IMG/VR virus record: IMGVR_UViG_3300026290_000001
Origin: a virus
Direction: 5' to 3' (one strand)
DNA length: 64,000 nt
Part shown: piece by piece, positions 13,780 through 56,675 of the stretch
Layout: every line of letters begins with the position of its first letter
Position numbering within the stretch: position 1 is the first letter of the stretch
Notes under the pieces: generated by a model
Databases searched by the model: none
The model's input: the letters and a program-made list of their open reading frames with translations, nothing else
Told to the model about the DNA's origin: nothing
Position numbers and translations under genes: made by a program

Positions 13780-14361
13780 CTACTTTAAAACCATACTTAT
13801 CACTGCACCAAATCCCATAGACATTGCAATTATAAATAAATTCTTTAAAATATCTGATAATTTTATTTTATTATCACCACTTACTTCATCAATCTTCTTG
13901 CTTAATTTCTCCACACTAACTTCTGTACTGTTCATTCTATTGCTTAGTACGTCTAATGAATTACTGATCTTCGCTTGATTTTCACTAATTTCAGCAATCA
14001 ATTTATCTCTTTTAATTCCGTCTTCTCTCTGTAATTTTGTGAGCAATTGGAGTTCGGACAAAACACTTGTAATATCATATATTTTGTTTGTTTGGCTTTC
14101 CAAATCATCTATACGGTGATTTGCCACCTTTATTTTTTCATCAACATTCTTAAATACTTCGGCACAAATTTTTGGTTGTTCACATTCTTGATTTATGACC
14201 AATTCACAACACCATCCAATCTTTGTATTCATTCCTCCTTTGCGGTATAATGGGTACAAGGTAATTAATTTGACCGCAAAATTAATTACCATAACGAATA
14301 AGGCAGGATACCTATTTTTATCCTGCCTTATTTTTATTTTATTAAATTTAAAAAATCTCAA
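13780..14361 (-). CDS. coiled-coil protein with C-terminal membrane anchor
   Basis: Heptad-like central region, hydrophobic C-terminus IIAMSMGFGAVISMVL. Confidence 0.3.
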   Translation of the reverse strand: MRFFKFNKIKIRQDKNRYPALFVMVINFAVKLITLYPLYRKGGMNTKIGWCCELVINQECEQPKICAEVFKNVDEKIKVANHRIDDLESQTNKIYDITSVLSELQLLTKLQREDGIKRDKLIAEISENQAKISNSLDVLSNRMNSTEVSVEKLSKKIDEVSGDNKIKLSDILKNLFIIAMSMGFGAVISMVLK

Positions 14362-14375
14362 AAAATCATTTTTAA

Positions 14376-14397
14376 GAATCCCAATATATAGGGATTT
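14376..14397 (+). repeat. recombination-site-like core, copy B (gaatcccaatatatagggattt)
   Basis: Imperfect palindrome about 60 bp downstream of the XerD-like recombinase stop; direct repeat of copy A. Confidence 0.5.
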
Positions 14398-14456
14398 CTA
14401 AACCCGAAAATTTGAACCAAATTAAAGATTTGTTATGATACAAAATAAAAACATAA

Positions 14457-15461
14457 TTATTGATAGAAATATTGAGTATAACTTTGTTGCTTGTGTTCAA
14501 ACGTTTGTTTTGCGTAAATGCCCGTAGTTTGAATATCATCATGACCTAAAAGTTCTTGTAATACCGACATTGGACAACCGTTATTTAGCATCAAGGTTGC
14601 GAAAGTATGTCTGAGCATATGGGGATGAGTTCTCTTGTCAAGCCCTGCACGTTTACCTATTGCTGCTATTTCTCGTTGAATACCTCGATTGCTTAATCTT
14701 CTATATTCCTGCCGTTCTGTTACAAATAATGCTTCACAGTCATCCTTACGACTTTCAAGATATTTTTTAAGGTAAATTGCAGCTCTAGCAGAATAGAATA
14801 CAATTCGCTCTTTGTTTCCTTTGCCTAATACCTTAATCGTCCGATTTGATTGTCCTATATCATCTTTATTTAGTGCCGATATTTCAGATAATCGACAACC
14901 TGTTGAATACATAATTTCAGTTAATGCTTTTTCTCGCAAAGTGAAACAACTTTCACGGAATAGTTCCAATTCTTCAATTGTTAATGCCTTTGCCATTGCT
15001 TTTCCCACTTTATAAGGTTTAATTCTAATCATCGGATTTTCTTCAATAATCTGTTCCTCACAAAGCCATTCAAAGAAACTGCGAAGTACTGAGCGAATTG
15101 TCTCAACAGTACTTTTAGCATTTACTGTTGGGTCGCTTTCCCGATCATCCAGATAGTTAATTATGTCCTGCTTGGTTATTTCATTTACTGGTTTTTCTTC
15201 GGTTCTATCGGTAAATATTTTAAGATGAAGTCGATAATTATCAATAGTTATTGGACTTAATCCTTGCCGTTTTTTATCCTTCAAAAACAGTTTTATGTTT
15301 TTCCGCAAATTATAATATTCTGGATCGCTGTTTTGTTTTATAACTCTGTATTCATCAAGAATGGAGGCTAATTGATTTTTAGCCTCCATCTTATTCATGC
15401 CTTTTTCTATGATTCCATCTACAATTTTAGCATATAGCTCATAATTGAGATTAGGGTGCAT
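14457..15461 (-). CDS. XerC/XerD-like tyrosine site-specific recombinase
   Basis: RLSE (box I Arg), GKGNKER, HMLRHTFAT (H-x-x-R), LGHDDIQTTGIYA (catalytic Tyr). Confidence 0.8.
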   Translation of the reverse strand: MHPNLNYELYAKIVDGIIEKGMNKMEAKNQLASILDEYRVIKQNSDPEYYNLRKNIKLFLKDKKRQGLSPITIDNYRLHLKIFTDRTEEKPVNEITKQDIINYLDDRESDPTVNAKSTVETIRSVLRSFFEWLCEEQIIEENPMIRIKPYKVGKAMAKALTIEELELFRESCFTLREKALTEIMYSTGCRLSEISALNKDDIGQSNRTIKVLGKGNKERIVFYSARAAIYLKKYLESRKDDCEALFVTERQEYRRLSNRGIQREIAAIGKRAGLDKRTHPHMLRHTFATLMLNNGCPMSVLQELLGHDDIQTTGIYAKQTFEHKQQSYTQYFYQ

Positions 15462-15729
15462 AGAATACCTCCTTTTATTTAGTTGTTACTGAAGGTTCAT
15501 AGTCTACTGCGAAGTAACTTCTTAATACACATTTGCGAAGTCAGAAAACTTTTTAACCAATATCAAACAACCCCGACAATTTCTCTAACTTTTTCCCTAT
15601 ACATATTAGGCACAAAATCAATTATAATTCGCCCACTTTCTACTGCATATACCCACATTCCTAATATAGCTTCACTCATATCATTCATCTCCTTTTAGAT
15701 TAAACAATTCGGTTCTTAACATATCGATT

Positions 15730-15960
15730 TCAGCCATCATCAAAGTGAGTAGAAGTGCTATTCCTTCTGCATCTTCGTTGAAAGCCAACTTCGATATAGT
15801 CATTCTTGTTGAACACTTGCTCATCATATTCCCAACCACTAAACCCCTTCATGGCGTCAATATCTTCTTCCTCAATTCGCACTATATTCGTCCGAACATA
15901 GACTGTATCAGCATTCACTTCAATGGGCTTAACTGTTTCCTGTGTCCCTCTTATTCTCAC
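15730..15960 (-). CDS. hypothetical protein (GTG start)
   Basis: Small ORF just downstream of the tail-fibre gene. Confidence 0.25.
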   Translation of the reverse strand: MRIRGTQETVKPIEVNADTVYVRTNIVRIEEEDIDAMKGFSGWEYDEQVFNKNDYIEVGFQRRCRRNSTSTHFDDG

Positions 15961-16035
15961 GCTTTATCACCTCTTTATAGTATTTTCCTTGATAGGCTTC
16001 TATTCGACCCATTCGACCAATTACCACTGTTATTA

Positions 16036-17187
16036 TTAAAAATACACGAGGCGAGCGCCGATAACCGAATACTTTTCAGACTCCGAATAACCCACATGCA
16101 GCCGAAACGCCCCCGCCTTATCCGCAGCCGACCAATCACCACCGAAACGCGGCAAGCGCGAAACATTCAGAACCGCGGAATCGGGATAATGCGTGCTTTC
16201 GCTTCCGTTTGCTGTTTTGACGATAAAACCCGTTTCCGTACCACCTTGTATGTCGTCTATGTAACCGACTATATTCGTTGTCGCACCCTGTCCGTAATTT
16301 GTATATCCAGAACCAATATCGTTAAAACTTTCATTGCCGATTAGGATGTTTCGGTCTGCATCACTAAATAATCCGTCAATCCAATAGTAAATATTACCCC
16401 AAAAATCTTCTATGCCACAAAATTTTAATTGTTGTTTTCCTGTAGTTTCACCATAGAACATACCTTTAGCATTTGTAGCACCCGTATTAACTTTGGCACT
16501 ATTCCCATCGACATAACCTCTGCCTAAAGCAGTTTGCCAATCCCTACTCTTAAACATCACCGTACCTAAGACTTGCAACATTAAAAGTTGAAAATAAGCC
16601 ATTTGGTCATAACCACTGCCATTCGCCTGTGCAATAGTTCTAAATGCACCGATAGTTTCATAAGCGGTTGTTATTTTTCCGCTTAAACTTCTTAATTTAG
16701 AACCGTCAGAATATCCTAAATAAGCTGAAATGTAACACTTGGCTTTTTCGGTTGTACCCCTCATATGTGCTAAACATTTATACCCACTATCTACCTTTGC
16801 ATTAGCATATCTTACATACAAGTCAGTCCCAATGGTTTCAAATTTCCACCAAATCTTAGGAAATTCAATCATTACGTCACCATCTGCACCACTTGTAATG
16901 TCTGCATTTGTCCCGTCAATTTTTTTAGTATAATCGTTTGGATTTAGATAGTATTGCACCACTCCATTTTTAAGTAAACATGGTTTAATCTGATTAAATG
17001 GAAACTTGTCTTGCCAACTACCATAAGAAAAATTGCCATTATTTCCTTGGGCTGGAGTAAAACCTATTGCATTATCTGTATAGGCTAAAGCAGTTTCGGG
17101 GTTGCTATTTGTAGTATCAATTTTGATGCCATATATTTTAGGTGGTGATTTTACTGGTTTTCTTTTCCTAATTAATGCCTCACCCAT
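16036..17187 (-). CDS. tail fibre / receptor-binding protein with C-type-lectin (FGE)-like C-terminal domain
   Basis: Position in fibre cluster; C-terminus RFGGDWSAADKAGAFRLHVGYSESEKYSVIGARLV fits the RGGxW...GFRxV pattern of CLec/FGE-fold variable domains; 3' end visibly GC-rich. Confidence 0.45.
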   Translation of the reverse strand: MGEALIRKRKPVKSPPKIYGIKIDTTNSNPETALAYTDNAIGFTPAQGNNGNFSYGSWQDKFPFNQIKPCLLKNGVVQYYLNPNDYTKKIDGTNADITSGADGDVMIEFPKIWWKFETIGTDLYVRYANAKVDSGYKCLAHMRGTTEKAKCYISAYLGYSDGSKLRSLSGKITTAYETIGAFRTIAQANGSGYDQMAYFQLLMLQVLGTVMFKSRDWQTALGRGYVDGNSAKVNTGATNAKGMFYGETTGKQQLKFCGIEDFWGNIYYWIDGLFSDADRNILIGNESFNDIGSGYTNYGQGATTNIVGYIDDIQGGTETGFIVKTANGSESTHYPDSAVLNVSRLPRFGGDWSAADKAGAFRLHVGYSESEKYSVIGARLVYF

Positions 17188-18030
17188 TTACCTCACCACC
17201 TTTAGCTGAATTGGCAAACTAACTTCAGGTTTATCCATCGCATATAATGTTATAGAATTATTAGCAGTTGTTACACGATAAATTTTACCCCACTCATTTA
17301 CTCGTTCTTTATCTGTAGCAAATGTGCCACTCATTACTACGTCAACTATAGGATTGTCATTTGACGATATTCCAGTTACCGTTTGCGTTTTCGTATATGG
17401 GGCTTCTGTACCTGTCCAAGTAGTATCAAGTGTTGTCGTAAGCGTAGCGTGATATACGTGTCCTAATTTACTTATTGTCGCACCATCTGCCAGATGGTTA
17501 GCAAACTTTTTCCCAACCCCACTAACCAAAGGTCTTTTATCGACAATTATATTTACAGTTTTATCCGCATTTGTACTAATAGTACCAATTAATAGACTTC
17601 CATCTGTAATTGTTCCATCTATACTACTAGCAAAATTTCCATCATTTTTAAGATATATAGTATAGGTTATACTGGCCGATACTGGATTAATAGTAAAAGT
17701 TGTATCAGATGTTTTAGTTATAGTATTTATTGTATTTCCACTAAATGTTTCACCAGTACCACTAGCAATAACTATACTTAATGTATCTGTACCACTCGTA
17801 TAAAATGCAGATTTTATTCTAAATGGACTATCCAATTCTAATGAATTTAATAAAAATCTCGCATCTTTCCATGTTGCTCCTAAATCTCTAGGATCAGTAC
17901 CACCTAAAGTAACATTTGCATCATCAGCAACATGGATAATATCTAAACCACTATATTTATTTCTAATTTCTGCTACTTGCTCATCTGTATGTATAGCAAA
18001 TACTTTGCTATTTTTAATTACACAAATCAT
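17188..18030 (-). CDS. tail fibre protein
   Basis: Shares a roughly 110-aa domain (about 75% identical by eye) with the adjacent tailspike; Ser/Thr/Gly-rich. Confidence 0.45.
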   Translation of the reverse strand: MICVIKNSKVFAIHTDEQVAEIRNKYSGLDIIHVADDANVTLGGTDPRDLGATWKDARFLLNSLELDSPFRIKSAFYTSGTDTLSIVIASGTGETFSGNTINTITKTSDTTFTINPVSASITYTIYLKNDGNFASSIDGTITDGSLLIGTISTNADKTVNIIVDKRPLVSGVGKKFANHLADGATISKLGHVYHATLTTTLDTTWTGTEAPYTKTQTVTGISSNDNPIVDVVMSGTFATDKERVNEWGKIYRVTTANNSITLYAMDKPEVSLPIQLKVVR

Positions 18031-19813: not shown

Positions 19814-21031
19814 TTACTCTATCACCCCTTCATAATTAACCTTCCAAACATCATTAACTTTGCCATAGATGCCAATGATAGGTTTCCATTTTCCATTAAT
19901 TTTTACATAAACATTATTAATATTTTTCCAATTACCATTTACTTTATAAATCAGCGCAGTATTGTAAACTGAAATATCATTAATATTTAATAATAAATTA
20001 TCATTAGCATTGGTTTCTACAAATACATTTGTAGTTTCATGTATATTTATATTTAAACTATCATTAGAATTAATATCAACATTTTTGTGAATATAACTTT
20101 CATTAATAGACAATCTAATTGAATCAGTTATATTATTAGATGCAGTTAAATTATTTACATTATCCGTTGAAGAAATATTTAATGTATCACTAACATTTGG
20201 CAAGGCAGTAACATTTGCATTGTCAGCACAATAAATATTAATAGCATCATTTTTATTAAACTCATTAATAGTTAAATCTATGCCATTAATATCTAAATTT
20301 TCAGATGTGCTAATATCTACCAATATATTTTTGGTTTCATTTACACCTATATTTAAATTATCACCAGTATTTATATTAGTAATTAATTGACTTTCTTCGG
20401 TAATATCTAAATATAAATTGTTTTCAATATCCTTGGATAATACTAATAAAGAATCTTCTTGTAGATTGATATCTAAAGAATCTTCTAGGTTTAAAGAAAT
20501 ATATGATGATTCATCTATTGTTAAATTAATATCATCTTCTACTTCAATGTTTTTATCTAAATTATTAGTTTCACTTAATGATAAATCAAGATCGTCATAA
20601 GTTTTTATATTGTAAGCATCAGGAGAATCCCATATAGATAATTCTTGTATATTTATAGACAAAGAATCATTAACATTTATATTTACATTTAATGATTGCG
20701 AATCACTTACAGTTAAGTTAAGTGCATCTTGAAGTGTATTAGTTACTTCTAAATCCGAAACATCATTTAGTGTAATTATAGGCGGGTCAGTACCTGAAGC
20801 ATTTACAAGCCTTTCACTTTCCTCTACAGATGTAATAATTAAATTGTCAGAAACACTAAAAGTCCAAATTTTATTACTTTCTTCAGTTATAGTTATTGTT
20901 AATTCATCATGTACATTTATTTCTATAACTGCTGATTCTGTAATATTTAGTGTTAATTCATCCGAAGAGGAAGATGATATATCGTTTAATGTGTTGAAAG
21001 ATGTTTGGTTAAAACGTCCTTGATTAAACAA
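19814..21031 (-). CDS. tail/baseplate protein with short internal repeats
   Basis: Acidic, repetitive D/E-S-L-N-I units; fibre-cluster context. Confidence 0.3.
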   Translation of the reverse strand: MFNQGRFNQTSFNTLNDISSSSSDELTLNITESAVIEINVHDELTITITEESNKIWTFSVSDNLIITSVEESERLVNASGTDPPIITLNDVSDLEVTNTLQDALNLTVSDSQSLNVNINVNDSLSINIQELSIWDSPDAYNIKTYDDLDLSLSETNNLDKNIEVEDDINLTIDESSYISLNLEDSLDINLQEDSLLVLSKDIENNLYLDITEESQLITNINTGDNLNIGVNETKNILVDISTSENLDINGIDLTINEFNKNDAINIYCADNANVTALPNVSDTLNISSTDNVNNLTASNNITDSIRLSINESYIHKNVDINSNDSLNINIHETTNVFVETNANDNLLLNINDISVYNTALIYKVNGNWKNINNVYVKINGKWKPIIGIYGKVNDVWKVNYEGVIE

Positions 21032-21779: not shown

Positions 21780-22286
21780 TTATTCTTGATAGACGAACCA
21801 AATGTCCCCATCCTCACCGTCTTCATTACTAGGTTGTACAGTAGAAAATATAAAATGGTGTGCAGAAGTTTGTATTATATCTTCAAGTGTTTCTTTAATA
21901 TCATAAGAACCACTACCATTAGATTGAAAACTACTATAAATCCTACTTGCGGGTATATAAACTCCACCACTACCATAAAAAGAAAATTGTAATATACTTC
22001 CACTTACATCAGGATGAAAATAAACGTATCCATATACATAATCTACTTTATATGTACCAATTTTACTTTCTGTGTCTAATGTAGGAAAACCATCAACAAT
22101 TTCATACCACTGGTAAGTTTCCAATCCAAAATTACCCATGACCTGAACTTTATTTTGCCTATGCGGAATTTCTGATAATATTACTAATCCATTTATTATT
22201 TTTTTATATTCACTTAATGAAACTAAAGGTTGCTCATTATTACCTCTTCGTATTGAAATAAAAGGATCATAAAAAATTTGATTCAA
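21780..22286 (-). CDS. hypothetical structural protein
   Basis: ORF in baseplate region. Confidence 0.3.
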   Translation of the reverse strand: MNQIFYDPFISIRRGNNEQPLVSLSEYKKIINGLVILSEIPHRQNKVQVMGNFGLETYQWYEIVDGFPTLDTESKIGTYKVDYVYGYVYFHPDVSGSILQFSFYGSGGVYIPASRIYSSFQSNGSGSYDIKETLEDIIQTSAHHFIFSTVQPSNEDGEDGDIWFVYQE

Positions 22287-22448
22287 AATTTATCACCTCC
22301 AACCTAATTTTTCAAAAAATAGAAAAATCAAAAATGTTCAAAAATTTATCTTCTGTTTTCTCTTGTTTTCTTCCATTTACTCTGTTTTTCAAGCACAAAA
22401 TTTGAATAAAAGGAATATTTTATTGTTGAGCCAAGAACACTCGTGACT

Positions 22449-23741
22449 TCAGTCATGAGATGAATTGGCTCTGTTCTGTTCATATATAATCCATGATTTT
22501 CTTGCATTAATTCTTTGCATGTTAGATATTTTCGGTGTCTTCATACCTCTGGGTGCATTACTAAAATCTATTTTTTCACCATCTATACCCATAAGAATGG
22601 CATAACCCGTAGACATTCTACCTTTAATAAAATATTCATTACCTATATACCTTACTTTATCAAACTTCCTAAATCCTTCTATTTTACCTGTAGGTATCTT
22701 CTGATGACTTCTTACTCCTTTTGCCTGTTGGTAATCGCCTTTAGGGATACACTTTTTTAATACAGCTTTTTCAGTTTTAAAGCTTACATCAATTAACCCT
22801 ATATCTTCAATATTATTTAAACAGGCAATAGCTACAGCATCGTAGTAATGCTCTTTTGGTAATCCCATTAGCTGTCTATGTTCTTTGGTAATAAATCCAA
22901 AGGTTTCTTTTGCATTTGGTAGCTGTCTTAATAATTGTTGTCTTATACTATTCATCTGTGTTGTGTGTTTTAATTGTCCTTTAATTTTACCATTCTTCTT
23001 TAATTTAATTCCTCCTTTGTGCAAACTATTATGACAAGTTTTACAAAGTGTAATTAAATTTTCTGCATCATCTGAGCCACCATTTTTTCTAAAAACTATA
23101 TGATGTACCTCTAATCTGCTGTCTTTACTTTTTCCTTTGCAATACTGGCAAATATATTTATCTCTACTTAATACATAAGCTTTAGTATTAGCAAATCCAT
23201 AATTAGTTCCTTTTTGATAAAGCCATTTATTACTTAATACTGCTGGATTTTTTAAAGCATGTGGGTCAAATGTTGCTGTTTCTATTATTATATTTGTAAT
23301 GGGCATTATTGATTTTGCAAAATCAATTTCTTTTAAGTGTGAATTAATTTTACTTGTCATTGTAGGAGAAAATCTATCTTTTTTAATGCTGTTTTTCCTA
23401 TTATTAAATCTAGGTTCCCTATATCTAGTTTTCCTATTCCTTCTAGTTCTCCTATATTTAGCTCTTTTGTCCATTTTGTCAGATATATCATTTCTAATTT
23501 CTACTTCTGATATATAATACACTTCATTTTCGTCATTTGCTACTGCACTTCCTATTTTACTACTACCAGTATCAATTCCTAAAGTTAAATCTTGTGTATA
23601 GTCTGTAGCATGATATAGTAATTTAATTGTAAATGGAGTTCTTCTTATGCATTTTGCTTTACCATCTTTTAACAATAATCTTGCTATTGCTGGTTTACAA
23701 GGCATTAAAGGACTCCCATCTTCATTAATTACATAAACCAT
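22449..23741 (-). CDS. iscB: IscB-type RNA-guided nuclease (OMEGA system effector; PLMP + split RuvC + HNH)
   Basis: N-terminal PLMP motif (GSPLMPCKPAIARLLLKDGKA), RuvC-I LGIDTGSSKIG, Arg-rich bridge RRTRRNRKTRYREPR, RuvC-II IIIETATFD, HNH CQYCKGK...EVHHIVFRKNGGSDDAENLITLCKTCH, RuvC-III HYYDAVAIA. Confidence 0.75.
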   Translation of the reverse strand: MVYVINEDGSPLMPCKPAIARLLLKDGKAKCIRRTPFTIKLLYHATDYTQDLTLGIDTGSSKIGSAVANDENEVYYISEVEIRNDISDKMDKRAKYRRTRRNRKTRYREPRFNNRKNSIKKDRFSPTMTSKINSHLKEIDFAKSIMPITNIIIETATFDPHALKNPAVLSNKWLYQKGTNYGFANTKAYVLSRDKYICQYCKGKSKDSRLEVHHIVFRKNGGSDDAENLITLCKTCHNSLHKGGIKLKKNGKIKGQLKHTTQMNSIRQQLLRQLPNAKETFGFITKEHRQLMGLPKEHYYDAVAIACLNNIEDIGLIDVSFKTEKAVLKKCIPKGDYQQAKGVRSHQKIPTGKIEGFRKFDKVRYIGNEYFIKGRMSTGYAILMGIDGEKIDFSNAPRGMKTPKISNMQRINARKSWIIYEQNRANSSHD

Positions 23742-24030
23742 AAAATCAAATCCTTTCGGATAAATACTCTGCTTAAAAGCAGGTTATGCGTATCTATATA
23801 CTATTACCATATATAGAATTCGTCCTCATCTCGACAATGATAAAATAGCTTATATGTATATCACACCGAGCCTTACCCTCCAACTCTACTTAGTGATATA
23901 CGATAGAGCAATGGTCTGATGCGTCAACCAAAGGTATCATAACTATTCTATCGTAGTATAAATTTCTCTATACTAAGTCTGGTGAACTTAGACTTTAGAA
24001 GCCTCCGACTTTAGTCGGGGGTAGTTCACT
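23742..24030 (-). ncRNA. candidate omega-RNA scaffold upstream of iscB
   Basis: About 285 nt with no ORF, GC-enriched relative to surroundings, several stem-loops on the - strand (cccccgact-aaa-gtcggagg; ctaagt-tcaccag-acttag; ctgct-ttta-agcag) directly 5' of iscB. Confidence 0.45.
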
Positions 24031-24271
24031 CTATTTCAGGATTGATAGATAAATCATCTTTGCTTGTACTATTTACATTAGATAAATTATCTTCATTGGA
24101 CAAATCATCATTAATAATTTGACTTAATTCGTCTATTTTAGAACTTAATTTGATAATCTCTATCTGATACATATTATTTTGTAAACATAAAGTGACTACA
24201 TCTAAGGGCAAATTACTATTGTTTATTAACTCTGCCAGTTTAATATTAAAATCACTTATAATAAAAATCAC
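24026..24271 (-). CDS. hypothetical protein
   Basis: ORF; may overlap the 5' end of the IscB element. Confidence 0.2.
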   Translation of the reverse strand: MIFIISDFNIKLAELINNSNLPLDVVTLCLQNNMYQIEIIKLSSKIDELSQIINDDLSNEDNLSNVNSTSKDDLSINPEIE

Positions 24272-25735: not shown

Positions 25736-26335
25736 ATGAAAGGATGTATAATAATGAAAATTAAAAACTTATCTTATCTGTTTATTGGTTTGCTAGTTGG
25801 GTGTTTATTTCCCATTCAATCTTTATTTGCCGAACAACCTATTACATTAATTATCAATGGTAAAACAATTACTAATGCTTCACCACAAATAGTTTCAGAT
25901 AGAACGTATGTACCTTTGAGGGTAATATCCGAAGAATTAGGTGCAACAGTTGAATGGGACGGAGTAAATAGGGTAGTTAGGGTTAATAGTGGGGATGGAC
26001 AAAAAATTGAAAAGATTAATCAAAATCAAACTCAAAACAATAATGATAATAGTAATGTGGAGAGCAACCCTAGAGATAATATCAATTATATTAGTAGTGA
26101 TGATATGGAAAAATATTACGAAAGAGATACAAATAAAGGTTTTGTAAAAAATCGTTGGGTAGATGGTAAATATTTTATTGACTATGATAGAAAAATTACA
26201 CGTTTTGAAGATTATGAATATTATTATGATAGAGAAAGAGATATATTTTATTGGGCAGATTATAAGGCAATTTTAATCTTTGGAGAAACAATAAAAGATT
26301 ATCCTAAATATAAATTTAACCAAATACAGCAGTAG
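25736..26335 (+). CDS. secreted lipoprotein with copper-amine-oxidase-N-terminal-like domain (moron)
   Basis: Signal peptide with lipobox LLVGC; domain ITLIINGKTITNASPQIVSDRTYVPLRVISEELGATVEWDGVNRVVRV; opposite strand to the surrounding late genes. Confidence 0.5.
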   Translation: MKGCIIMKIKNLSYLFIGLLVGCLFPIQSLFAEQPITLIINGKTITNASPQIVSDRTYVPLRVISEELGATVEWDGVNRVVRVNSGDGQKIEKINQNQTQNNNDNSNVESNPRDNINYISSDDMEKYYERDTNKGFVKNRWVDGKYFIDYDRKITRFEDYEYYYDRERDIFYWADYKAILIFGETIKDYPKYKFNQIQQ

Positions 26336-30030: not shown

Positions 30031-33000
30031 CTATTTACCAAGTTTACTCATTCCATTATTTATCCGTTTAAAGAAACCATCAACACCTTTTTCTGTGTTT
30101 TCTACTTTATCTATATGAACATTCATATTATAAGTTACGTTACCTCCACCAGCAAACTGTAATTGTGGAGTTGCATTGGCAATTAATTTTTGCATATTAG
30201 GAATTAGATATCTTTCAATATTTTTTGGTGGAATTAAAATTTCATTTGTTAGTGCTTTGATTATATGTTCATTGGCACTGGTATTGAAAAATTTATTAAA
30301 TTTATCAACAAAACCAAATGATTTATCTCCGACTATACCACCTTCATGATATATCCTAATTTGTCTTTTCTTTTCATCCCATTCTACTTGATGACCTAAT
30401 GCTTCTGCAACTTCCCTGATAGAAAGATATGTTGTTCCGTCAACATTTTTAGCTGGTTTAAATCTCTTTCCACCAATTATAATTGTCTGGTTTTGTCCAT
30501 AACCTTCCCAATCAGCAGATGCTCCTAAAAGTGATGCAAGAAGTCTAGATTGCATAATTGCTCTATTATTGACAAGTTCAAAAGAACCAGAATCCAATAC
30601 TGCCATAGGTTGTCTACCAGATGTGTTAGAACTAGGATTAGTACTTTCCAAAGAGGGAATAGACATATTCGCACTATTTGCACTTTCTAATAATGCTAAT
30701 GCCTGTTCCATTTTTGTAATTAAATTAGCACTAATACTATTACCAATAAACTCTAAATTGCCATTTACAAAAGTTTTAAATTCTGCAAAAGCTGATTTAA
30801 CTTTATCAATATTACCATTTATAATATCAGAACGAATTTGGGCAAACTTTTGTTCGTCATTAATTAAATCGTCATAGTGTTTTTCGGTTTCTCTTTTAAT
30901 TCTATCCAACCTATCTTTTTCTAAGTTAAGTTTAGTATCTTCTGCTTTTTTCTTTGCATCAATATCTTTTTTATAAGCATCTAATTGGTCTTTAAGATTT
31001 TCTTTACGTAAATCAATTGAATGGTCATGTTGATATTCATTAATTTCATCCTCTTGTTCTGCCAATTGTTTTATTAATTCTGCTTTTTTTGCTTTTGCTT
31101 CAAAAGAATCATCTAATGATAAAACGTCAATATTTTTTTGAGTTTCTAATATTGCTTTTTGTTTCTTTTCCAATTCACGATTATAATCATGCTCATTTTC
31201 TTCTCTATCTAGTGCTTTGATTCGTGCATTGATGTAATCTTCAAATTGTTTTAATTCATCATCAAGATTATCAGTTGCTTGTTTATGACGTTTTTCTTCT
31301 GCTTTCATTTGTTCATCTATGGCATCTAATGCAACTTGTTTTTGTTTTTCATAGATATTTTTATAGATAGAGATGATTTCGTCTGCTATGGATGCTAGTT
31401 GTTGTTTGATAGAGAATTGGAGATTGATATATTCTTGCTTTAGTTGTTTTAAAGTATTTATCAATTCTTGTTTTTGGTCAGCATTGTATCTATCACTTGC
31501 TAATTCCTGTTGAACTAATGCTATTTTATTTCTTAAAATATTAACACTTTCAATATTAATTTGATTTTCTCGTTCTAATAATGCAATATATTCAGCAGAC
31601 CCTTTTTCTAATAAAGACATTTCATTTCTAAGGTTTTCTTTTTCTTGAGTTAAATCAGATAGTTTAATATCTTCAATTGATAAATTAATTTTAAATTCAG
31701 CAAAACTCAAATCTCTTATTTCATCATCTATACCTTGAATTTCTTTTTTAAGACCTTCTGCACTATCTTTGAGTTTTTTAAAATCTTCAATCGCTTTTGC
31801 AATTTTTTCATTCTTTATATCAACTTCAATTGTATCTGTTGAACCAGACATTATTTTGTTAAAGTCAGATTCAGACAACCCTTTTCCAATATAAGACCGT
31901 AGATTCTGTTCTGCTTGTTTTAGACTTGAATCAAAAGTGTTATTTATATCTAAAAGCAGGTTTTGTTTTTTTTGTAATAAAAGTATCATTTGGTCATATA
32001 TTTCTGTTTTTTGTTCAAAAGAAGTTACATCGTCAAGTTGATCTTTAAAAGTTTCTATTTCTCTGTTAATTGCTTCGAGTGCTTCTTTCCAAACTTCAAA
32101 GGTTTTGGTAAAGGATTTGGAGGATTTAGAGGAAGAACCATATCTATCTAAAGAACTAGATACATTAAGATTTTTAAACTTAGATGCCATATCTCTAGTG
32201 GCTTTTTGAAATTCAGCATAATCTTTAAGCATCTGGTTTGTTTTAGAATCAACAGCTAAAGCACTACCGCTTTCAATACGTCTAAAATCACCCATACTCG
32301 AAGGATTTACTAATAGCGTACCTGCATTAAAAGCATCAAAATATTTCGCCCATTCAGAACCTAATTTGCTTATTAATTGCAATTCAATTGCTTCTCTTGC
32401 TTGAGCTAAATTTGCCCATTGAGTTACATTATTGCCATATAATTTTGATAAATGATTAAATAATTCAGCATGGTTATTTTTAACACTGTTATAGAAATTA
32501 ATATCTTGTTCTTTAGTTTTTATAAAGGCATCATAAATTGCATTTTGGTAATCTTCTGTGTCTTTGACAAGTTGTTGTCTTAATTTGGACTCATCTTCAA
32601 GTAGAGGAATATAATCTTGATAATCAGATATTATTTTTTCTATTGAAGATTGAGTAAGACCTTTGTCAGATAATTCATCAAGAAAACCTTTTAGGTCTTT
32701 TATTTTAGATACATTGTCTTTGTAAGTGGTTTGAAAATCGGAGAGAGCTTTTTCATATTGATTTAAAGTATTAATCGCATTTTTTGAATCAATAGTAGAA
32801 GGATATAGTGATGCAAAATTAATAGCAAATTCTTTTAAATCGGGATTACCTTTAGTTAATGTATTAATTAAATTAGTTATTTCCTTAGATGTTTTTGATA
32901 ATCCATCTCTATTTTTCTTAGAATCATCGCCACTATTAATAGCAGAAGTTAATTTATTATATTGTTCAATTAAAGAATCTAAATCAGAATTAGCAACTTT

Positions 33001-36000
33001 AGTAGCAAAATCACTTAATGCTTGTTGTTGAGTTTCTATATCTTCGGGTTGTAAAGCAAGTGATTTAGCAAATTCGGAAACAACTAATTTGGCAGAATCA
33101 GACATTTCCTTACCATTAGATTCTAAAGTTTTAATGGTTTCTTGCGCTTCGTATTCTAAATATTTTTGTTTGTTTTTAGAAAGATTATATATTTCTTCTT
33201 GTTGTCTTTGATATATATCTTTCCAATCTTCTAATTTTCTGAGGTTATACCATTCAGTTCCTTTATTATTATCAATCATTAATTGATATTCTTCTATACG
33301 TTTTTCTGCGGTGTCTCTGAGGTTAATTGCTTTTTTAATTTCTTTATTAGTTTGTTTATCTGATGCTTTAACTTTAAATTCTAATAATTCCTGTTCTTTT
33401 TTTAATTCTTCATCTAAAGCCAAAATTCTTAGTTTAATTACTTCTATAGAATCAGAATAAGCTTCTCCTTCAAGATTAATACCAGTAGCAGATACACCAT
33501 ATTTATCAACAAGTTCTTTTTGAATTTCTAATAATCGTTTCTTTTCTTCGGTAGTTGCGGTAAGATTTTTCTCTTTATCTTTAAGAGTTTCATATTCAGA
33601 AGTTAATTCTTTTAACCCCTCTTTTTGTTGTTTTAAATTTTGTATTTGATTTTGACTTGTTTCTATTTGTTTTTGTTGTTCTTCTCTATGTTTTTTAGTA
33701 GCATTAGTGAGTCCATAAATAGCAACCATTGCAGTTGTTGCAACAACTGCCAATAATCCTAATGGATTTGTTGCCATCGTTGCTTTTAAAAAATTCATTG
33801 CAGCAGTAAGTCCTTGTGTTGTTGTCAATAATGCTAAAAGGGAAATATTGGCAGCATTAGTAGTAGTAATGAATGCGATCATTGCTTTTATACTAGAAGT
33901 AATAGCAGTTCCTTTCCAAATTAAAAAAGCCGTAGTTAAAAGTGCTACAACAACTTCTGCATTTCCAAGAACTTCAACTAAAGTTGTCATAGCAATTACA
34001 AAACCTTTAATTACGTCAGAATTTAATGCTTCTTGCCATTTCCCCATTACTGTGTTTTTGAATTGTGCAGATTTTGCCTCAATTGATTCCATATACTTTT
34101 CGTTTTCAATTAAAGCAGAATTTGTCGAATTTAAGGCAGTAGTTAGAGAGTCCTGCATATCCTTGTAATTAGTCATCATAGCCATTACTATGTTTCCTTG
34201 TCTTTTTCCTGCGACAAGTTCCGACATATTAGCCCTCTGTACGTCTGTAAGTTTTTCCCAAACTAAGGCTAATTCTAACATAATGTCATAGGTGGATTTA
34301 AAGGTATTTTCATCTTTGCGAATTTGAATACCAATATTTTTAAATGATTCTTCAAGTTTAGGAAGATATTCTAAAACATCTTCACCATCTTCGGATACAC
34401 CTCTAAGTCTCATTGAAATTGTTTTGAGGGCTGTTCCTACGGTTGCTGGGTCTTGTACCACTGCGTTAGCAGCAGTTATCAATGCAACTGCTTCTTCCAT
34501 TGTATTGCCAGCAGAATATAATGAAGCAGCAGATCTACGCATAGCTTCACCAATACCTGCACTTGAAATTGCAAAATTATTTCCAACTTCATTATAAATA
34601 TCTACAATTTTCTGTATATTTCTACCTTCTTCATCTACTGCAACACCAAAACCTTTTACTGCTGAAATAATTGCTAGACTAGCTTCTTCTACTCCAATAT
34701 CACCTACATTAGAATATAATAATGCTTGTTTTGCTAATTGAGCAGATTGTTCAAGGGAATAACCCAAACGGGCAAACTCTGTCGTACTATTAATAACTTC
34801 CACACTAGTTTTTGCCAAATTTCGACCTATAGCATTTGCCTCAAGTGAAAATTTATTTAATGTTTCTCTAGTTTCGTCAGTAACTTTATTCAAATTTGTG
34901 AGAGCAGTATCTATGTCGATGATACTTTGAATACCATTTTTTACTGCTGTTATTGTTTTGATTATTACATCACCGATGAGCAACCAACTAGCGAATTTCT
35001 TGCCCGCTTCAAGTAAACTTTGTCCAAAAAGTCCAGTATATTTATTAGCATCTTGAATTTCTTTCTTATAAATACTTGTGGTAGTAGAAATTTCTCTAAG
35101 TTTAGAATTGGCTTCTGCCATATTCTTACTGAAATTTTTATTAGTTGGATCAAAACCACGTATTTGAGATTCAAGAGTATTTAAAGCACTTAAATTATCA
35201 CCAACAATAAACTTTCCATCTACACCTCTCATGCCCCTGATTCTATTTAATAAATCTTGTTGAGCAAGAGATTGTTTATGTATTTCACTTGTTAACTTTT
35301 GCTGTTGAATAATATCTTTATCAATATTTTTTGCTTTTATTGTACCAACATTCCGTAATGTTTGTTCTCTAATTTTTTCAAGTTGAATTAATTTTTCAGC
35401 TTCTATTCCTTCTATTTTGGTTTTTTCACCAATGTCAATTTTTCTTCTAATAATATTATTATATTGACCTTGATGATAGGTTATTTGTTTAGTTAATTCT
35501 TTTGCCTGTTCTGTATCTTTATTTCCTAAACTATGATAATCTTGTCTTAATTTATTTAATTGTGTTAAATGCTGTTTGGCTTCATTAAAATTTTTATTTT
35601 GTGTATTTTTAATAGTTTCTAAATTAGTTTTTTCAAGATTATCATAATAATCTGCCATTTTAACCAGTTCATCTGGTTTCTTTGTCATATCACCTACAGT
35701 TTCTTTAACTCTCTGTGACCAATATTTGGACTGTTCTTTATTTAATTTTTCTAACTCTGTACGTTGTTTTTTATAATTAATAGTAGTTTCTGTTACTTTT
35801 TTATATACTTCGTCTGTTCCTGCTTTTAAATGTTCAATTTGTTTTACACTCTCACCATTTGCTTTTGTCCACTCTTTAGTTCTTTCAGTAATTTTTGCTT
35901 CAGCATTTTCAATTTGTACATATTTTTCTTTATACTTGTCTAAACCCTTACTATCAACATCAATTTTTATTTTAGGATTAACTCGTTGTTCAATATCTTT

Positions 36001-36075
36001 TTTTACTTTATTTAGTTCTGATTCTGATGCTCTATCTAATAACGTTTTTATTCGGATTACAATATCATCTGCCAC
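30031..36075 (-). CDS. tail tape measure protein
   Basis: 2014 aa, extensive coiled-coil, central hydrophobic block, position between tail genes and baseplate; C-terminus carries a copper-amine-oxidase-N-terminal-like segment (YLSIREVAEALGHQVEWDEKKRQIRI). Confidence 0.8.
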   Translation of the reverse strand: MADDIVIRIKTLLDRASESELNKVKKDIEQRVNPKIKIDVDSKGLDKYKEKYVQIENAEAKITERTKEWTKANGESVKQIEHLKAGTDEVYKKVTETTINYKKQRTELEKLNKEQSKYWSQRVKETVGDMTKKPDELVKMADYYDNLEKTNLETIKNTQNKNFNEAKQHLTQLNKLRQDYHSLGNKDTEQAKELTKQITYHQGQYNNIIRRKIDIGEKTKIEGIEAEKLIQLEKIREQTLRNVGTIKAKNIDKDIIQQQKLTSEIHKQSLAQQDLLNRIRGMRGVDGKFIVGDNLSALNTLESQIRGFDPTNKNFSKNMAEANSKLREISTTTSIYKKEIQDANKYTGLFGQSLLEAGKKFASWLLIGDVIIKTITAVKNGIQSIIDIDTALTNLNKVTDETRETLNKFSLEANAIGRNLAKTSVEVINSTTEFARLGYSLEQSAQLAKQALLYSNVGDIGVEEASLAIISAVKGFGVAVDEEGRNIQKIVDIYNEVGNNFAISSAGIGEAMRRSAASLYSAGNTMEEAVALITAANAVVQDPATVGTALKTISMRLRGVSEDGEDVLEYLPKLEESFKNIGIQIRKDENTFKSTYDIMLELALVWEKLTDVQRANMSELVAGKRQGNIVMAMMTNYKDMQDSLTTALNSTNSALIENEKYMESIEAKSAQFKNTVMGKWQEALNSDVIKGFVIAMTTLVEVLGNAEVVVALLTTAFLIWKGTAITSSIKAMIAFITTTNAANISLLALLTTTQGLTAAMNFLKATMATNPLGLLAVVATTAMVAIYGLTNATKKHREEQQKQIETSQNQIQNLKQQKEGLKELTSEYETLKDKEKNLTATTEEKKRLLEIQKELVDKYGVSATGINLEGEAYSDSIEVIKLRILALDEELKKEQELLEFKVKASDKQTNKEIKKAINLRDTAEKRIEEYQLMIDNNKGTEWYNLRKLEDWKDIYQRQQEEIYNLSKNKQKYLEYEAQETIKTLESNGKEMSDSAKLVVSEFAKSLALQPEDIETQQQALSDFATKVANSDLDSLIEQYNKLTSAINSGDDSKKNRDGLSKTSKEITNLINTLTKGNPDLKEFAINFASLYPSTIDSKNAINTLNQYEKALSDFQTTYKDNVSKIKDLKGFLDELSDKGLTQSSIEKIISDYQDYIPLLEDESKLRQQLVKDTEDYQNAIYDAFIKTKEQDINFYNSVKNNHAELFNHLSKLYGNNVTQWANLAQAREAIELQLISKLGSEWAKYFDAFNAGTLLVNPSSMGDFRRIESGSALAVDSKTNQMLKDYAEFQKATRDMASKFKNLNVSSSLDRYGSSSKSSKSFTKTFEVWKEALEAINREIETFKDQLDDVTSFEQKTEIYDQMILLLQKKQNLLLDINNTFDSSLKQAEQNLRSYIGKGLSESDFNKIMSGSTDTIEVDIKNEKIAKAIEDFKKLKDSAEGLKKEIQGIDDEIRDLSFAEFKINLSIEDIKLSDLTQEKENLRNEMSLLEKGSAEYIALLERENQINIESVNILRNKIALVQQELASDRYNADQKQELINTLKQLKQEYINLQFSIKQQLASIADEIISIYKNIYEKQKQVALDAIDEQMKAEEKRHKQATDNLDDELKQFEDYINARIKALDREENEHDYNRELEKKQKAILETQKNIDVLSLDDSFEAKAKKAELIKQLAEQEDEINEYQHDHSIDLRKENLKDQLDAYKKDIDAKKKAEDTKLNLEKDRLDRIKRETEKHYDDLINDEQKFAQIRSDIINGNIDKVKSAFAEFKTFVNGNLEFIGNSISANLITKMEQALALLESANSANMSIPSLESTNPSSNTSGRQPMAVLDSGSFELVNNRAIMQSRLLASLLGASADWEGYGQNQTIIIGGKRFKPAKNVDGTTYLSIREVAEALGHQVEWDEKKRQIRIYHEGGIVGDKSFGFVDKFNKFFNTSANEHIIKALTNEILIPPKNIERYLIPNMQKLIANATPQLQFAGGGNVTYNMNVHIDKVENTEKGVDGFFKRINNGMSKLGK

Positions 36076-56599: not shown

Positions 56600-56675
56600 T
56601 GGAGCCGAGTATAGGATTTGAACCCATAATCTGTTGTTTACAAGACAACTGCCTTATCAATTTGGCTAACCCGGC
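56600..56675 (-). tRNA. tRNA-Thr (anticodon UGU), CCA encoded
   Basis: 76-nt cloverleaf folded by hand: 7-bp acceptor stem, T-arm with TTCAAAT loop, anticodon stem GTTGT/ACAAC with loop CTTGTAA. Confidence 0.7.

Follow-up and report, generated by a model that had tools for sequence, protein, structure and literature searches.

Within the tail module of the virus filed as IMG/VR record IMGVR_UViG_3300026290_000001, the 64,000-nt stretch that we analyzed (the window, to which all coordinates apply) carries a 430-aa open reading frame (ORF) with the features of IscB, the nuclease of the IscB-omega RNA (ωRNA) elements that are transposon ancestors of Cas9. The locus raises the question of what such a gene is doing in a virion-structure operon: whether it belongs to an inserted transposon, how that transposon came to lie there, and whether it could act on related phages. 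An earlier note, made by a model from the letters alone, had proposed an IscB element inserted in this module with a role in selfish homing or inter-phage competition. Our analysis identifies a non-autonomous IS200/IS605-family IscB-ωRNA transposon, and we put at roughly 0.85 the probability that it transposed recently into one phage lineage and would be able to cut and convert empty alleles, that is, copies of the site that lack it. The element and its two genes are located as follows:

22424..24029, iscB and ωRNA on the minus strand: inserted element, 1,606 bp, the plus strand of which reads from the left end (LE, 22424) to the right end (RE, 24029)
22449..23741, minus strand: iscB coding sequence, 430 aa, assigned by hidden Markov models (HMMs), motifs and fold matches
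23742..24029, minus strand: ωRNA scaffold (HEARO RNA), assigned by Rfam and covariation

The IscB protein and its ωRNA

Every motif of the full IscB set that the earlier note had listed for the minus-strand ORF at 22449..23741 was present: PLMP (aa 11-14); GIDTGSS (aa 55-61) with the RuvC-I aspartate D57; an arginine-rich bridge-helix stretch (approximately aa 93-117); IIIETA (aa 151-156) with the RuvC-II glutamate E154; an HNH insert made up of CQYC at 198 (C198/C201), H213/H214, N228 and CKTCH at 233-237 (C233/C236/H237); and EHYYDAVA (aa 297-304) with the RuvC-III residues H298 and D301. In an alignment of 37 homologues, D57, E154, H298 and D301 were invariant, as were the HNH residues C198, C201, H213, H214, N228, C233, C236 and H237. 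The NCBIfam equivalog model guided_IscB (NF040563; curated cut-off 175 bits) matched aa 2-305 with 351.4 bits (E = 4e-105), and Pfam returned RRXRR (aa 2-178, E = 2.2e-54) and HNH (E = 3.6e-14); the profile check proposed in the earlier note thus came down on IscB and not on a group II intron maturase or a plain HNH family. The nearest solved structures by sequence were the OgeuIscB entries (phmmer E ~ 1e-42), with which the RuvC-I, RuvC-II, HNH and RuvC-III catalytic motifs aligned.

An AlphaFold model of the protein reached a predicted local distance difference test (pLDDT) score of 61, with residues 355-412 at 70-86. A fold search with this low-confidence model returned IscB/IsrB-ωRNA-DNA complexes as all of the top 10 matches (best E = 1e-18), followed by Cas9d, and the whole-protein model matched IscB structures across their full length. 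The C-terminal ~120 aa are presumed to form the domain that interacts with the target-adjacent motif (TAM). Judged from its sequence, the 430-aa ORF is a bona fide IscB, a member of the OMEGA nucleases.

The ωRNA expected just upstream of the gene was also found: Rfam model HEARO (RF02033; gathering score 83 bits) matched over its full length at 23819..24029 on the minus strand with 121.7 bits, the sole HEARO match in the window. Additional conserved helices (approximately 23815-23791 and 23782-23769) lie 3' of the region covered by the Rfam model and extend as far as the ribosome-binding site of iscB. When nine ωRNA copies were folded to a consensus, 82 pairs resulted, 42 of which were accompanied by compensatory two-sided changes, and the single-sequence fold of the ωRNA had a z-score of -3.3. 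HEARO RNA is likewise present upstream of iscB in five related contigs (L003, L004, L007, L008 and L009; contigs other than the window carry L numbers throughout).

Insertion boundaries and empty sites

The element is flanked by two phage genes in its own orientation:

24026..24271, minus strand: ORF81, 81 aa, function not assigned; upstream flanking phage gene, C terminus ...PEIE*
21780..22286, minus strand: gene for a 168-aa YomF_N protein (PF27067, SPβ-type tail module); downstream flanking phage gene

Protein-based look-ups in ENA, Logan and NCBI assemblies recovered 16 contigs in which an ORF81 homologue directly precedes the YomF_N gene and IscB is absent. Twelve of these (L037-L043 and L180-L184) are close relatives, 89-94% identical, with a spacer of 131-133 nt between the two genes; the other four are more distant. 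JGI metagenome contigs, searched for the exact pattern of the empty junction, yielded nothing. The empty junction reads ...CCTGAAATAGA^ATAAAATATTCC..., and the corresponding sequence in the window reads ...CCTGAAATAGA[GTGAAC...GGCTCAACA]ATAAAATATTCC..., so that on the minus strand the element opens with GTGAAC and closes with CTCAACA. These boundaries are exact to within 1 nt (the ambiguity of an A), and a target-site duplication is absent. When the element was removed from the window in silico, the remaining sequence was colinear through the junction with seven empty-site contigs at 89-94% identity over 1-3.4 kb. In an upstream alignment of element copies, similarity starts exactly at GTGAACTACC (24029), and the sequences 5' of that point are unrelated. 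The gene is therefore not ancestral to the module, as the earlier note had surmised; the span of 22287-24060 given there does hold the element and is slightly too wide, the element occupying 22424..24029 and the predicted guide extending to about 24045.

The insertion point lies between bases 2 and 3 of the last codon of ORF81, where GA|A TAA in the empty allele becomes GA|G TGA in the filled one. Because the tip of the element (GTGAA on the minus strand) provides both the G of the final Glu codon and a TGA stop, the ORF81 protein is unaltered and ends ...PEIE* in either state. A reading frame that runs on into the downstream flank had suggested that the element splits a longer phage gene, and this was ruled out, as ORF81 homologues are all 77-82 aa long and the empty sites stop with ...GAA TAA. 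Replacement of a target A-TAA by the element's G-TGA could provide a general route for silent insertion at TAA stop codons; of six RE junctions with sufficient flank, the window alone has a rebuilt stop codon.

The predicted guide and its targets

The segment adjoining the ωRNA outside the element would serve as the guide:

24030..24045, minus strand: predicted guide TCAATCCTGAAATAGA, 16 nt; outside the element, the last 16 nt of ORF81 before the junction

For the length of this guide we assume 16 nt by analogy with OgeuIscB. A perfect match of 16-20 nt followed by ATAAAA was found in five empty-site contigs (L180 and L040-L043), whereas four contigs had one mismatch, L037 had two that are TAM-proximal, and the distant relatives had five. 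The empty alleles of L037 (330-360) and of L038 and L039 (260-290) read ...GAAACAGT then ATAAAA, and their ORF81 ends in ...PETV*; these TAM-proximal variants could be cleavage-resistant alleles or ordinary divergence. No second target of the guide was present in the window. In the filled allele, GTGAAC stands 3' of the protospacer where the TAM would otherwise be, so the carrier would not be expected to cut its own genome.

In the known systems the RE bounds the ωRNA, and the guide has to be transcribed from sequence beyond the end of the element; this favors copies that share the orientation of the upstream gene (PMC10055086). The co-orientation of the element with ORF81 is what would be expected for IscB ωRNA biogenesis of this kind.

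Transposon ends, TAM and transposase

The ends of the element carry the following signals, including a transposon-encoded motif (TEM):

24025..24029, plus strand: TEM TTCAC at the RE tip; reads GTGAA on the minus strand and is identical to the ISGst wild-type TEM
22419..22423, plus strand: TAM TTTAT, abutting the LE on its 5' side; reads ATAAA 3' of the protospacer in the iscB orientation
22424..22470, plus strand: LE with subterminal imperfect hairpin CATGACTGAAGTCACG (22442..22457), which overlaps the iscB stop codon

TTTAT occurs in the empty sites and is therefore part of the flank, not of the element. The LE hairpin is enclosed by a covarying outer stem (GAGCC...GGCTC), and the 5' hairpin of the RE/ωRNA, CCGACTAAAGTCGG (approximately 24003-24016), has a GACTrAAGTC core as in the LE hairpin. 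We also observed that among contigs with the LE motif (L044-L163) the bases around the conserved hairpin covary (GAGCC..GGCTC, CATCT..AGATTG, CGTGC..GCAC), and that the TEM TTCAC differs from the TAM TTTAT by transitions at two positions only.

With a 17-nt LE motif as query we recovered over 120 contigs from metagenomes and 17 viral ones, and ATAAA (that is, TTTAT) exactly abuts the element end at 66 of 74 distinct insertion sites with the motif, and at about 9 of 10 sites of IscB-bearing copies. The logo built from the 74 sites was rejected as an IscB-specific TAM: most of the LE-sharing elements carry no IscB and are TnpB-bearing or resemble palindrome-associated transposable elements (PATEs), so the logo describes the target specificity of the LE/TnpA family. 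Both the transposase TnpA and the nuclease are reported to use a TAM 5' of the LE, TTTAT in ISGst2 and TTCAT for GstIscB, with the RE terminating in the TEM TTCAC (PMC10055086), and the window flank ATAAAA fits the OgeuIscB TAM NWRRNA (PMC12660989). By analogy we infer that the TAM of this IscB is ATAAA.

As a separate observation, the LE hairpin AAGTCACGAGTGTTCTT occurs in contigs L044-L163 at more than 70 distinct sites, mostly with no IscB and beside ordinary genes, in the manner of PATEs or miniature inverted-repeat transposable elements (MITEs); in L147 it adjoins a TnpB-like ORF.

The earlier note had pointed out that iscB has no adjacent TnpA, and no TnpA gene was found in the element or in the rest of the window. 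This copy is therefore non-autonomous. Such a lack is the usual state of iscB and nothing special, tnpA lying near only ~1.5% of iscB genes and ~98.5% being without one (PMC10055086), so it does not argue against membership in IS200/IS605. A Y1_Tnp gene (Pfam E = 1.6e-34) stands right after iscB in the relatives L008, L006 and L004 (75-80% identity), and IS200-type TnpA relatives are present in at least 43 viral contigs.

Relatives and mobility of the element

Relatives of this IscB were found on six other viral contigs at 72-90% identity. Among copies of the element, L094 holds one of full length (89% identity) and L098 a partial one (98% identity), both in contexts unrelated to the window, and further copies in L003, L005 and L083 (~90%) and in L169 (76%) each lie in a different context. 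The possibility that L098 represents the same insertion in a diverged phage was ruled out, since its flank is unrelated to that of the window and marks a separate transposition site. Deletion derivatives occur in yet other contexts (L159 and L174). Compared at the sequence level, these copies indicate that the sub-lineage is recently mobile.

The two derivatives have structures of their own. In L174 (968-1319; IMGVR_UViG_3300027711_000254, an 83-kb viral contig) the ωRNA, 92% identical to that of the window, is joined to the LE in an ORF-less mini-element with an ATAAAT flank that keeps nothing but the ωRNA and both ends, a microhomology deletion at an ATG having left only ATG-TGA of iscB; this guide-RNA-only derivative could depend on IscB supplied in trans. 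L159 (2181-2886) is an internally deleted copy in which the ωRNA is reduced to its first ~70 nt, joined to the 3' half of iscB and the LE.

The ratio of nonsynonymous to synonymous substitution rates (dN/dS) of the window iscB against three relatives was 0.10-0.23, a sequence-based indication that the iscB family is under purifying selection; as the comparison is between copies in different genomes, it reports selection on the transposon family and not on the window copy.

Proposed mechanism

From the anatomy of the element, a Y1 TnpA acting in trans, encoded by the host or by a co-resident element, would have pasted the single-stranded element 3' of TTTAT, at a point where this target overlaps the TAA stop of a small tail-module gene. 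By analogy with characterized systems, read-through of the late operon via ORF81 would then yield an ωRNA whose 5' ~16 nt (TCAATCCTGAAATAGA) derive from the phage flank, and the IscB-ωRNA complex would recognize TCAATCCTGAAATAGA followed by ATAAA, the configuration of an empty allele or of a donor joint after excision. HNH and RuvC would cut the empty allele, recombination with a filled genome would copy the element back, and GTGAAC in place of the TAM would shield the filled allele. TnpA in trans could also excise the element. For the phage, the outcome would be retention of the element after excision and the conversion or damage of co-infecting or resident siblings with empty sites. The selfish homing or inter-phage competition suggested in the earlier note would be an expected consequence of the known IscB mechanism; with the filled allele found in a single phage clone only, it is a role that we would predict and not one that the contigs display.

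A further step, which we regard as speculative and rather doubtful, is that the element works between phages as a naturally occurring RNA-guided gene drive. In cells co-infected with an empty-site sibling, or lysogenic for one, the IscB-ωRNA would cut the ORF81/YomF junction of that sibling. If so, the sibling would be converted, with adjacent tail-fibre alleles dragged along, or crippled; the alleles ending ...ACAGT then ATAAA would be drive-resistant escapees; and, as a corollary, the mimicry of A-TAA by G-TGA would permit silent insertion at TAA stops and make essential phage operons safe landing sites.

Weighing the readings

Several results weigh against the reading of a recently transposed element able to convert empty alleles. 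The filled contigs all belong to a single clone, with identity of at least 99.97% over 13 kb, so they give no population evidence of homing between phage backgrounds; L030 and L031 were considered as a homing signature and rejected, their flanks being 100% and 99.97% identical to the window and hence from the same clone. A promoter and terminator scan returned no promoter-like sites above chance, so production of the ωRNA rests on assumed read-through. The window has no cognate TnpA, and its viral contig was not among the 43 viral contigs with TnpA relatives in what was a pattern-limited search. On the protein side, the IscB structure model is of low confidence, and the C-terminal 122 aa had no match among PDB sequences, which leaves the TAM-interacting domain unconfirmed by sequence. 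The IscB TAM rests on the TnpA target motif together with analogy, and we infer expression, cleavage, homing and the source of TnpA from the anatomy of the element and from other IscB systems.

Part of this evidence would also suit an inert passenger, left by a one-off transposition, with the nuclease and RNA silent or inactive in the phage and decay ahead. The lack of TnpA in the window, the promoter scan, the single carrier clone and a dN/dS that reflects selection on the transposon family, not on this copy, all fit such a passenger, which we nevertheless consider unlikely: the ORF, catalytic residues, ωRNA and both ends are all intact, and co-orientation with a transcribed operon is the configuration reported to be favored for functional IscB ωRNAs (PMC10055086).

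On another reading, the IscB-ωRNA could be a phage-level weapon, kept since cutting the empty allele of competitors benefits the carrier phage, with selection acting on the phage. Phage homing endonucleases cause marker exclusion, and a weapon of this kind would resemble such exclusion. Circulating relatives contain the predicted target with a perfect match, the insertion leaves the ORF81 product unchanged and is retained in 13 of 13 contigs of the lineage with the gene in the late operon, and the empty alleles of L037, L038 and L039 that end ...ACAGT then ATAAA could be escape variants. Against this, the copy is indistinguishable from an ordinary transposon copy (both ends kept, the guide being flank), near-identical copies lie at unrelated sites, two mismatches in 16 nt are no excess at a divergence of ~6% between the phages, and the filled allele occurs in one genotype only; selection for a weapon is in our judgment quite improbable. 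That the protein is no IscB at all, and instead a protein-guided HNH homing endonuclease, a group II intron maturase or a Cas9-like CRISPR effector, is suggested by the 'HNH endonuclease' tags that PHROGs and GenBank attach to homologues and by a weak local HNH-motif match to intron maturase 6me0 (E = 5e-6). The equivalog HMM matched in full, PLMP is present and RuvC is split around HNH; the Pfam search of the protein returned only the RRXRR and HNH families and no reverse-transcriptase/maturase domain; the Cas9d model scored 36 bits against a cut-off of 375; an ωRNA is present; and no CRISPR-like repeats were found at 19-28 kb of the window. The Pfam, NCBIfam and Rfam results and the absence of CRISPR-like repeats ruled this identity out, and we regard it as hardly conceivable. 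A recently transposed IscB-ωRNA element with the predicted capacity to convert empty alleles is the reading that we retain.

The phage and neighboring genes

A 99.6-kb IMG/VR viral contig matches the window at 99.98% identity, and the identical IscB protein is found on 13 contigs of up to 138 kb, with its neighbors constant throughout. The gene content of the window comprises a large terminase, a portal, a 2,014-aa tape-measure protein, YomG_N and YomF_N (SPβ-type) tail proteins, an integrase, NrdD and a helicase at a GC content of 28%, which together point to a large temperate phage of a low-GC organism; we take it to be a temperate phage of SPβ-like type, large at ~135-138 kb, whose host is a low-GC anaerobe. 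In a megablast search against GenBank phages, 22 kb of the window found no match, so this phage is without a cultured close relative.

As the earlier note had stated, iscB lies in the tail module in the same orientation as the flanking tail genes. The description of its position as between baseplate and fibre genes was approximate, the actual neighbors being, on the upstream side, a tail protein of YomG_N type with small ORFs and, on the downstream side, the YomF_N-type 168-aa protein.

Other features of the window were recorded in passing. A 199-aa protein with a Cu_amine_oxidN1 domain and a hydrophobic N-terminal segment, possibly a signal peptide, is encoded at 25736-26335 on the plus strand, opposite to the tail module in which it lies, and the same domain is found near the C terminus (aa 1876-1911) of the tape-measure protein (30031-36075, minus strand); the opposite-strand gene may be a moron or a cell-wall-binding module. 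A 405-aa protein (19814-21031, minus strand) consists of degenerate ~20-aa repeats (D.L.I.I.E) with no family match, its gene contains direct DNA repeats with a period of 54-60 nt, and it is probably a fibre or decoration protein. Positions 14000-18000 form a GC-richer island (0.33-0.40 against ~0.28 elsewhere), situated just beyond a switch in gene orientation near 12 kb, which holds a tyrosine integrase (14457-15461, minus strand) and a tail protein (16036-17187, minus strand). The phage also encodes a tRNA-Thr (anticodon TGT; 56600-56675, minus strand).

Comparison with known systems

To our knowledge, demonstrations of the selfish 'cut-and-copy' role of IscB-ωRNA have been confined to bacterial chromosomes and plasmid assays. 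A full-text literature search found no paper on RNA-guided homing between phages, in a limited collection where absence is no proof. A complete copy in a virion-structure operon, recovered together with filled and empty alleles, supplies a defined natural substrate pair (guide TCAATCCTGAAATAGA, predicted TAM ATAAA) with which RNA-guided phage-to-phage homing becomes directly testable. The locus further contributes an IscB of compact size (430 aa) whose predicted native target and TAM are defined, and an elegant example of inserted DNA restoring the stop codon at its landing site.

The closest parallel in architecture is the ISGst IscB element, of the IS605 family, in Geobacillus stearothermophilus (Meers et al. 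2023, PMC10055086), which has the same order RE-ωRNA-iscB-LE and takes its guide from the RE flank. Its TEM is TTCAC as in the window, and its TAMs, AT-rich like that of the window, are TTTAT (ISGst2/TnpB2) and TTCAT (GstIscB) as against TTTAT here. Both elements are non-autonomous, co-oriented with the upstream gene, and have ends common to TnpB-carrying and ORF-less (PATE-like) relatives. Unlike ISGst, which resides in a bacterial chromosome, the window copy resides in a phage structural operon of an uncultured low-GC anaerobe host and overlaps and restores a stop codon; the ISGst motifs were shown experimentally. OgeuIscB-ωRNA (Altae-Tran et al. 2021; 7UTN, 7XHT and 8CSZ) shares the domain order, catalytic residues and HEARO-type ωRNA; it has 496 aa against 430 aa in the window, with ~25-40% identity in the aligned parts and a C-terminal domain that cannot be aligned by sequence.

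Among phages, the cultured Clostridium botulinum phage c-st (NC_007581, 133377-134994; L228) carries CST143, an IscB-like 'HNH endonuclease' (40% identity over 320 aa), and behind it a truncated OrfA transposase of the IS200 type. CST143 with this IS200-type remnant gives IscB elements in clostridial phages a precedent; in contrast to the window iscB, it lies in a non-structural region beside other IS elements and is annotated only as an HNH endonuclease. IscB-like genes were found in 16 of 50,697 GenBank phage records (E < 1e-20), mostly labeled 'HNH endonuclease', and about nine Staphylococcus myophage records hold such genes at 27-32% identity. The PHROG 'HNH endonuclease' families phrog_2214 (aa 2-377) and phrog_119 (aa 1-307) match the window protein. 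IscB seems to be under-annotated in phage genomes, hidden behind these labels; IscB-like genes in phages are uncommon and not new, and the element is no new kind of system.

Protein-guided HNH and GIY-YIG homing endonucleases of phages (T4 and the SPO1 family) cut the endonuclease-free allele of a co-infecting phage, whereupon recombination copies the gene in and flanking markers are co-converted. The effect of such enzymes on a phage population is the one to be expected of the window element, which would differ from them in recognizing its target by a guide RNA and TAM in place of a protein, in possessing transposon ends, and, by analogy with its relatives, in reaching new sites through TnpA.

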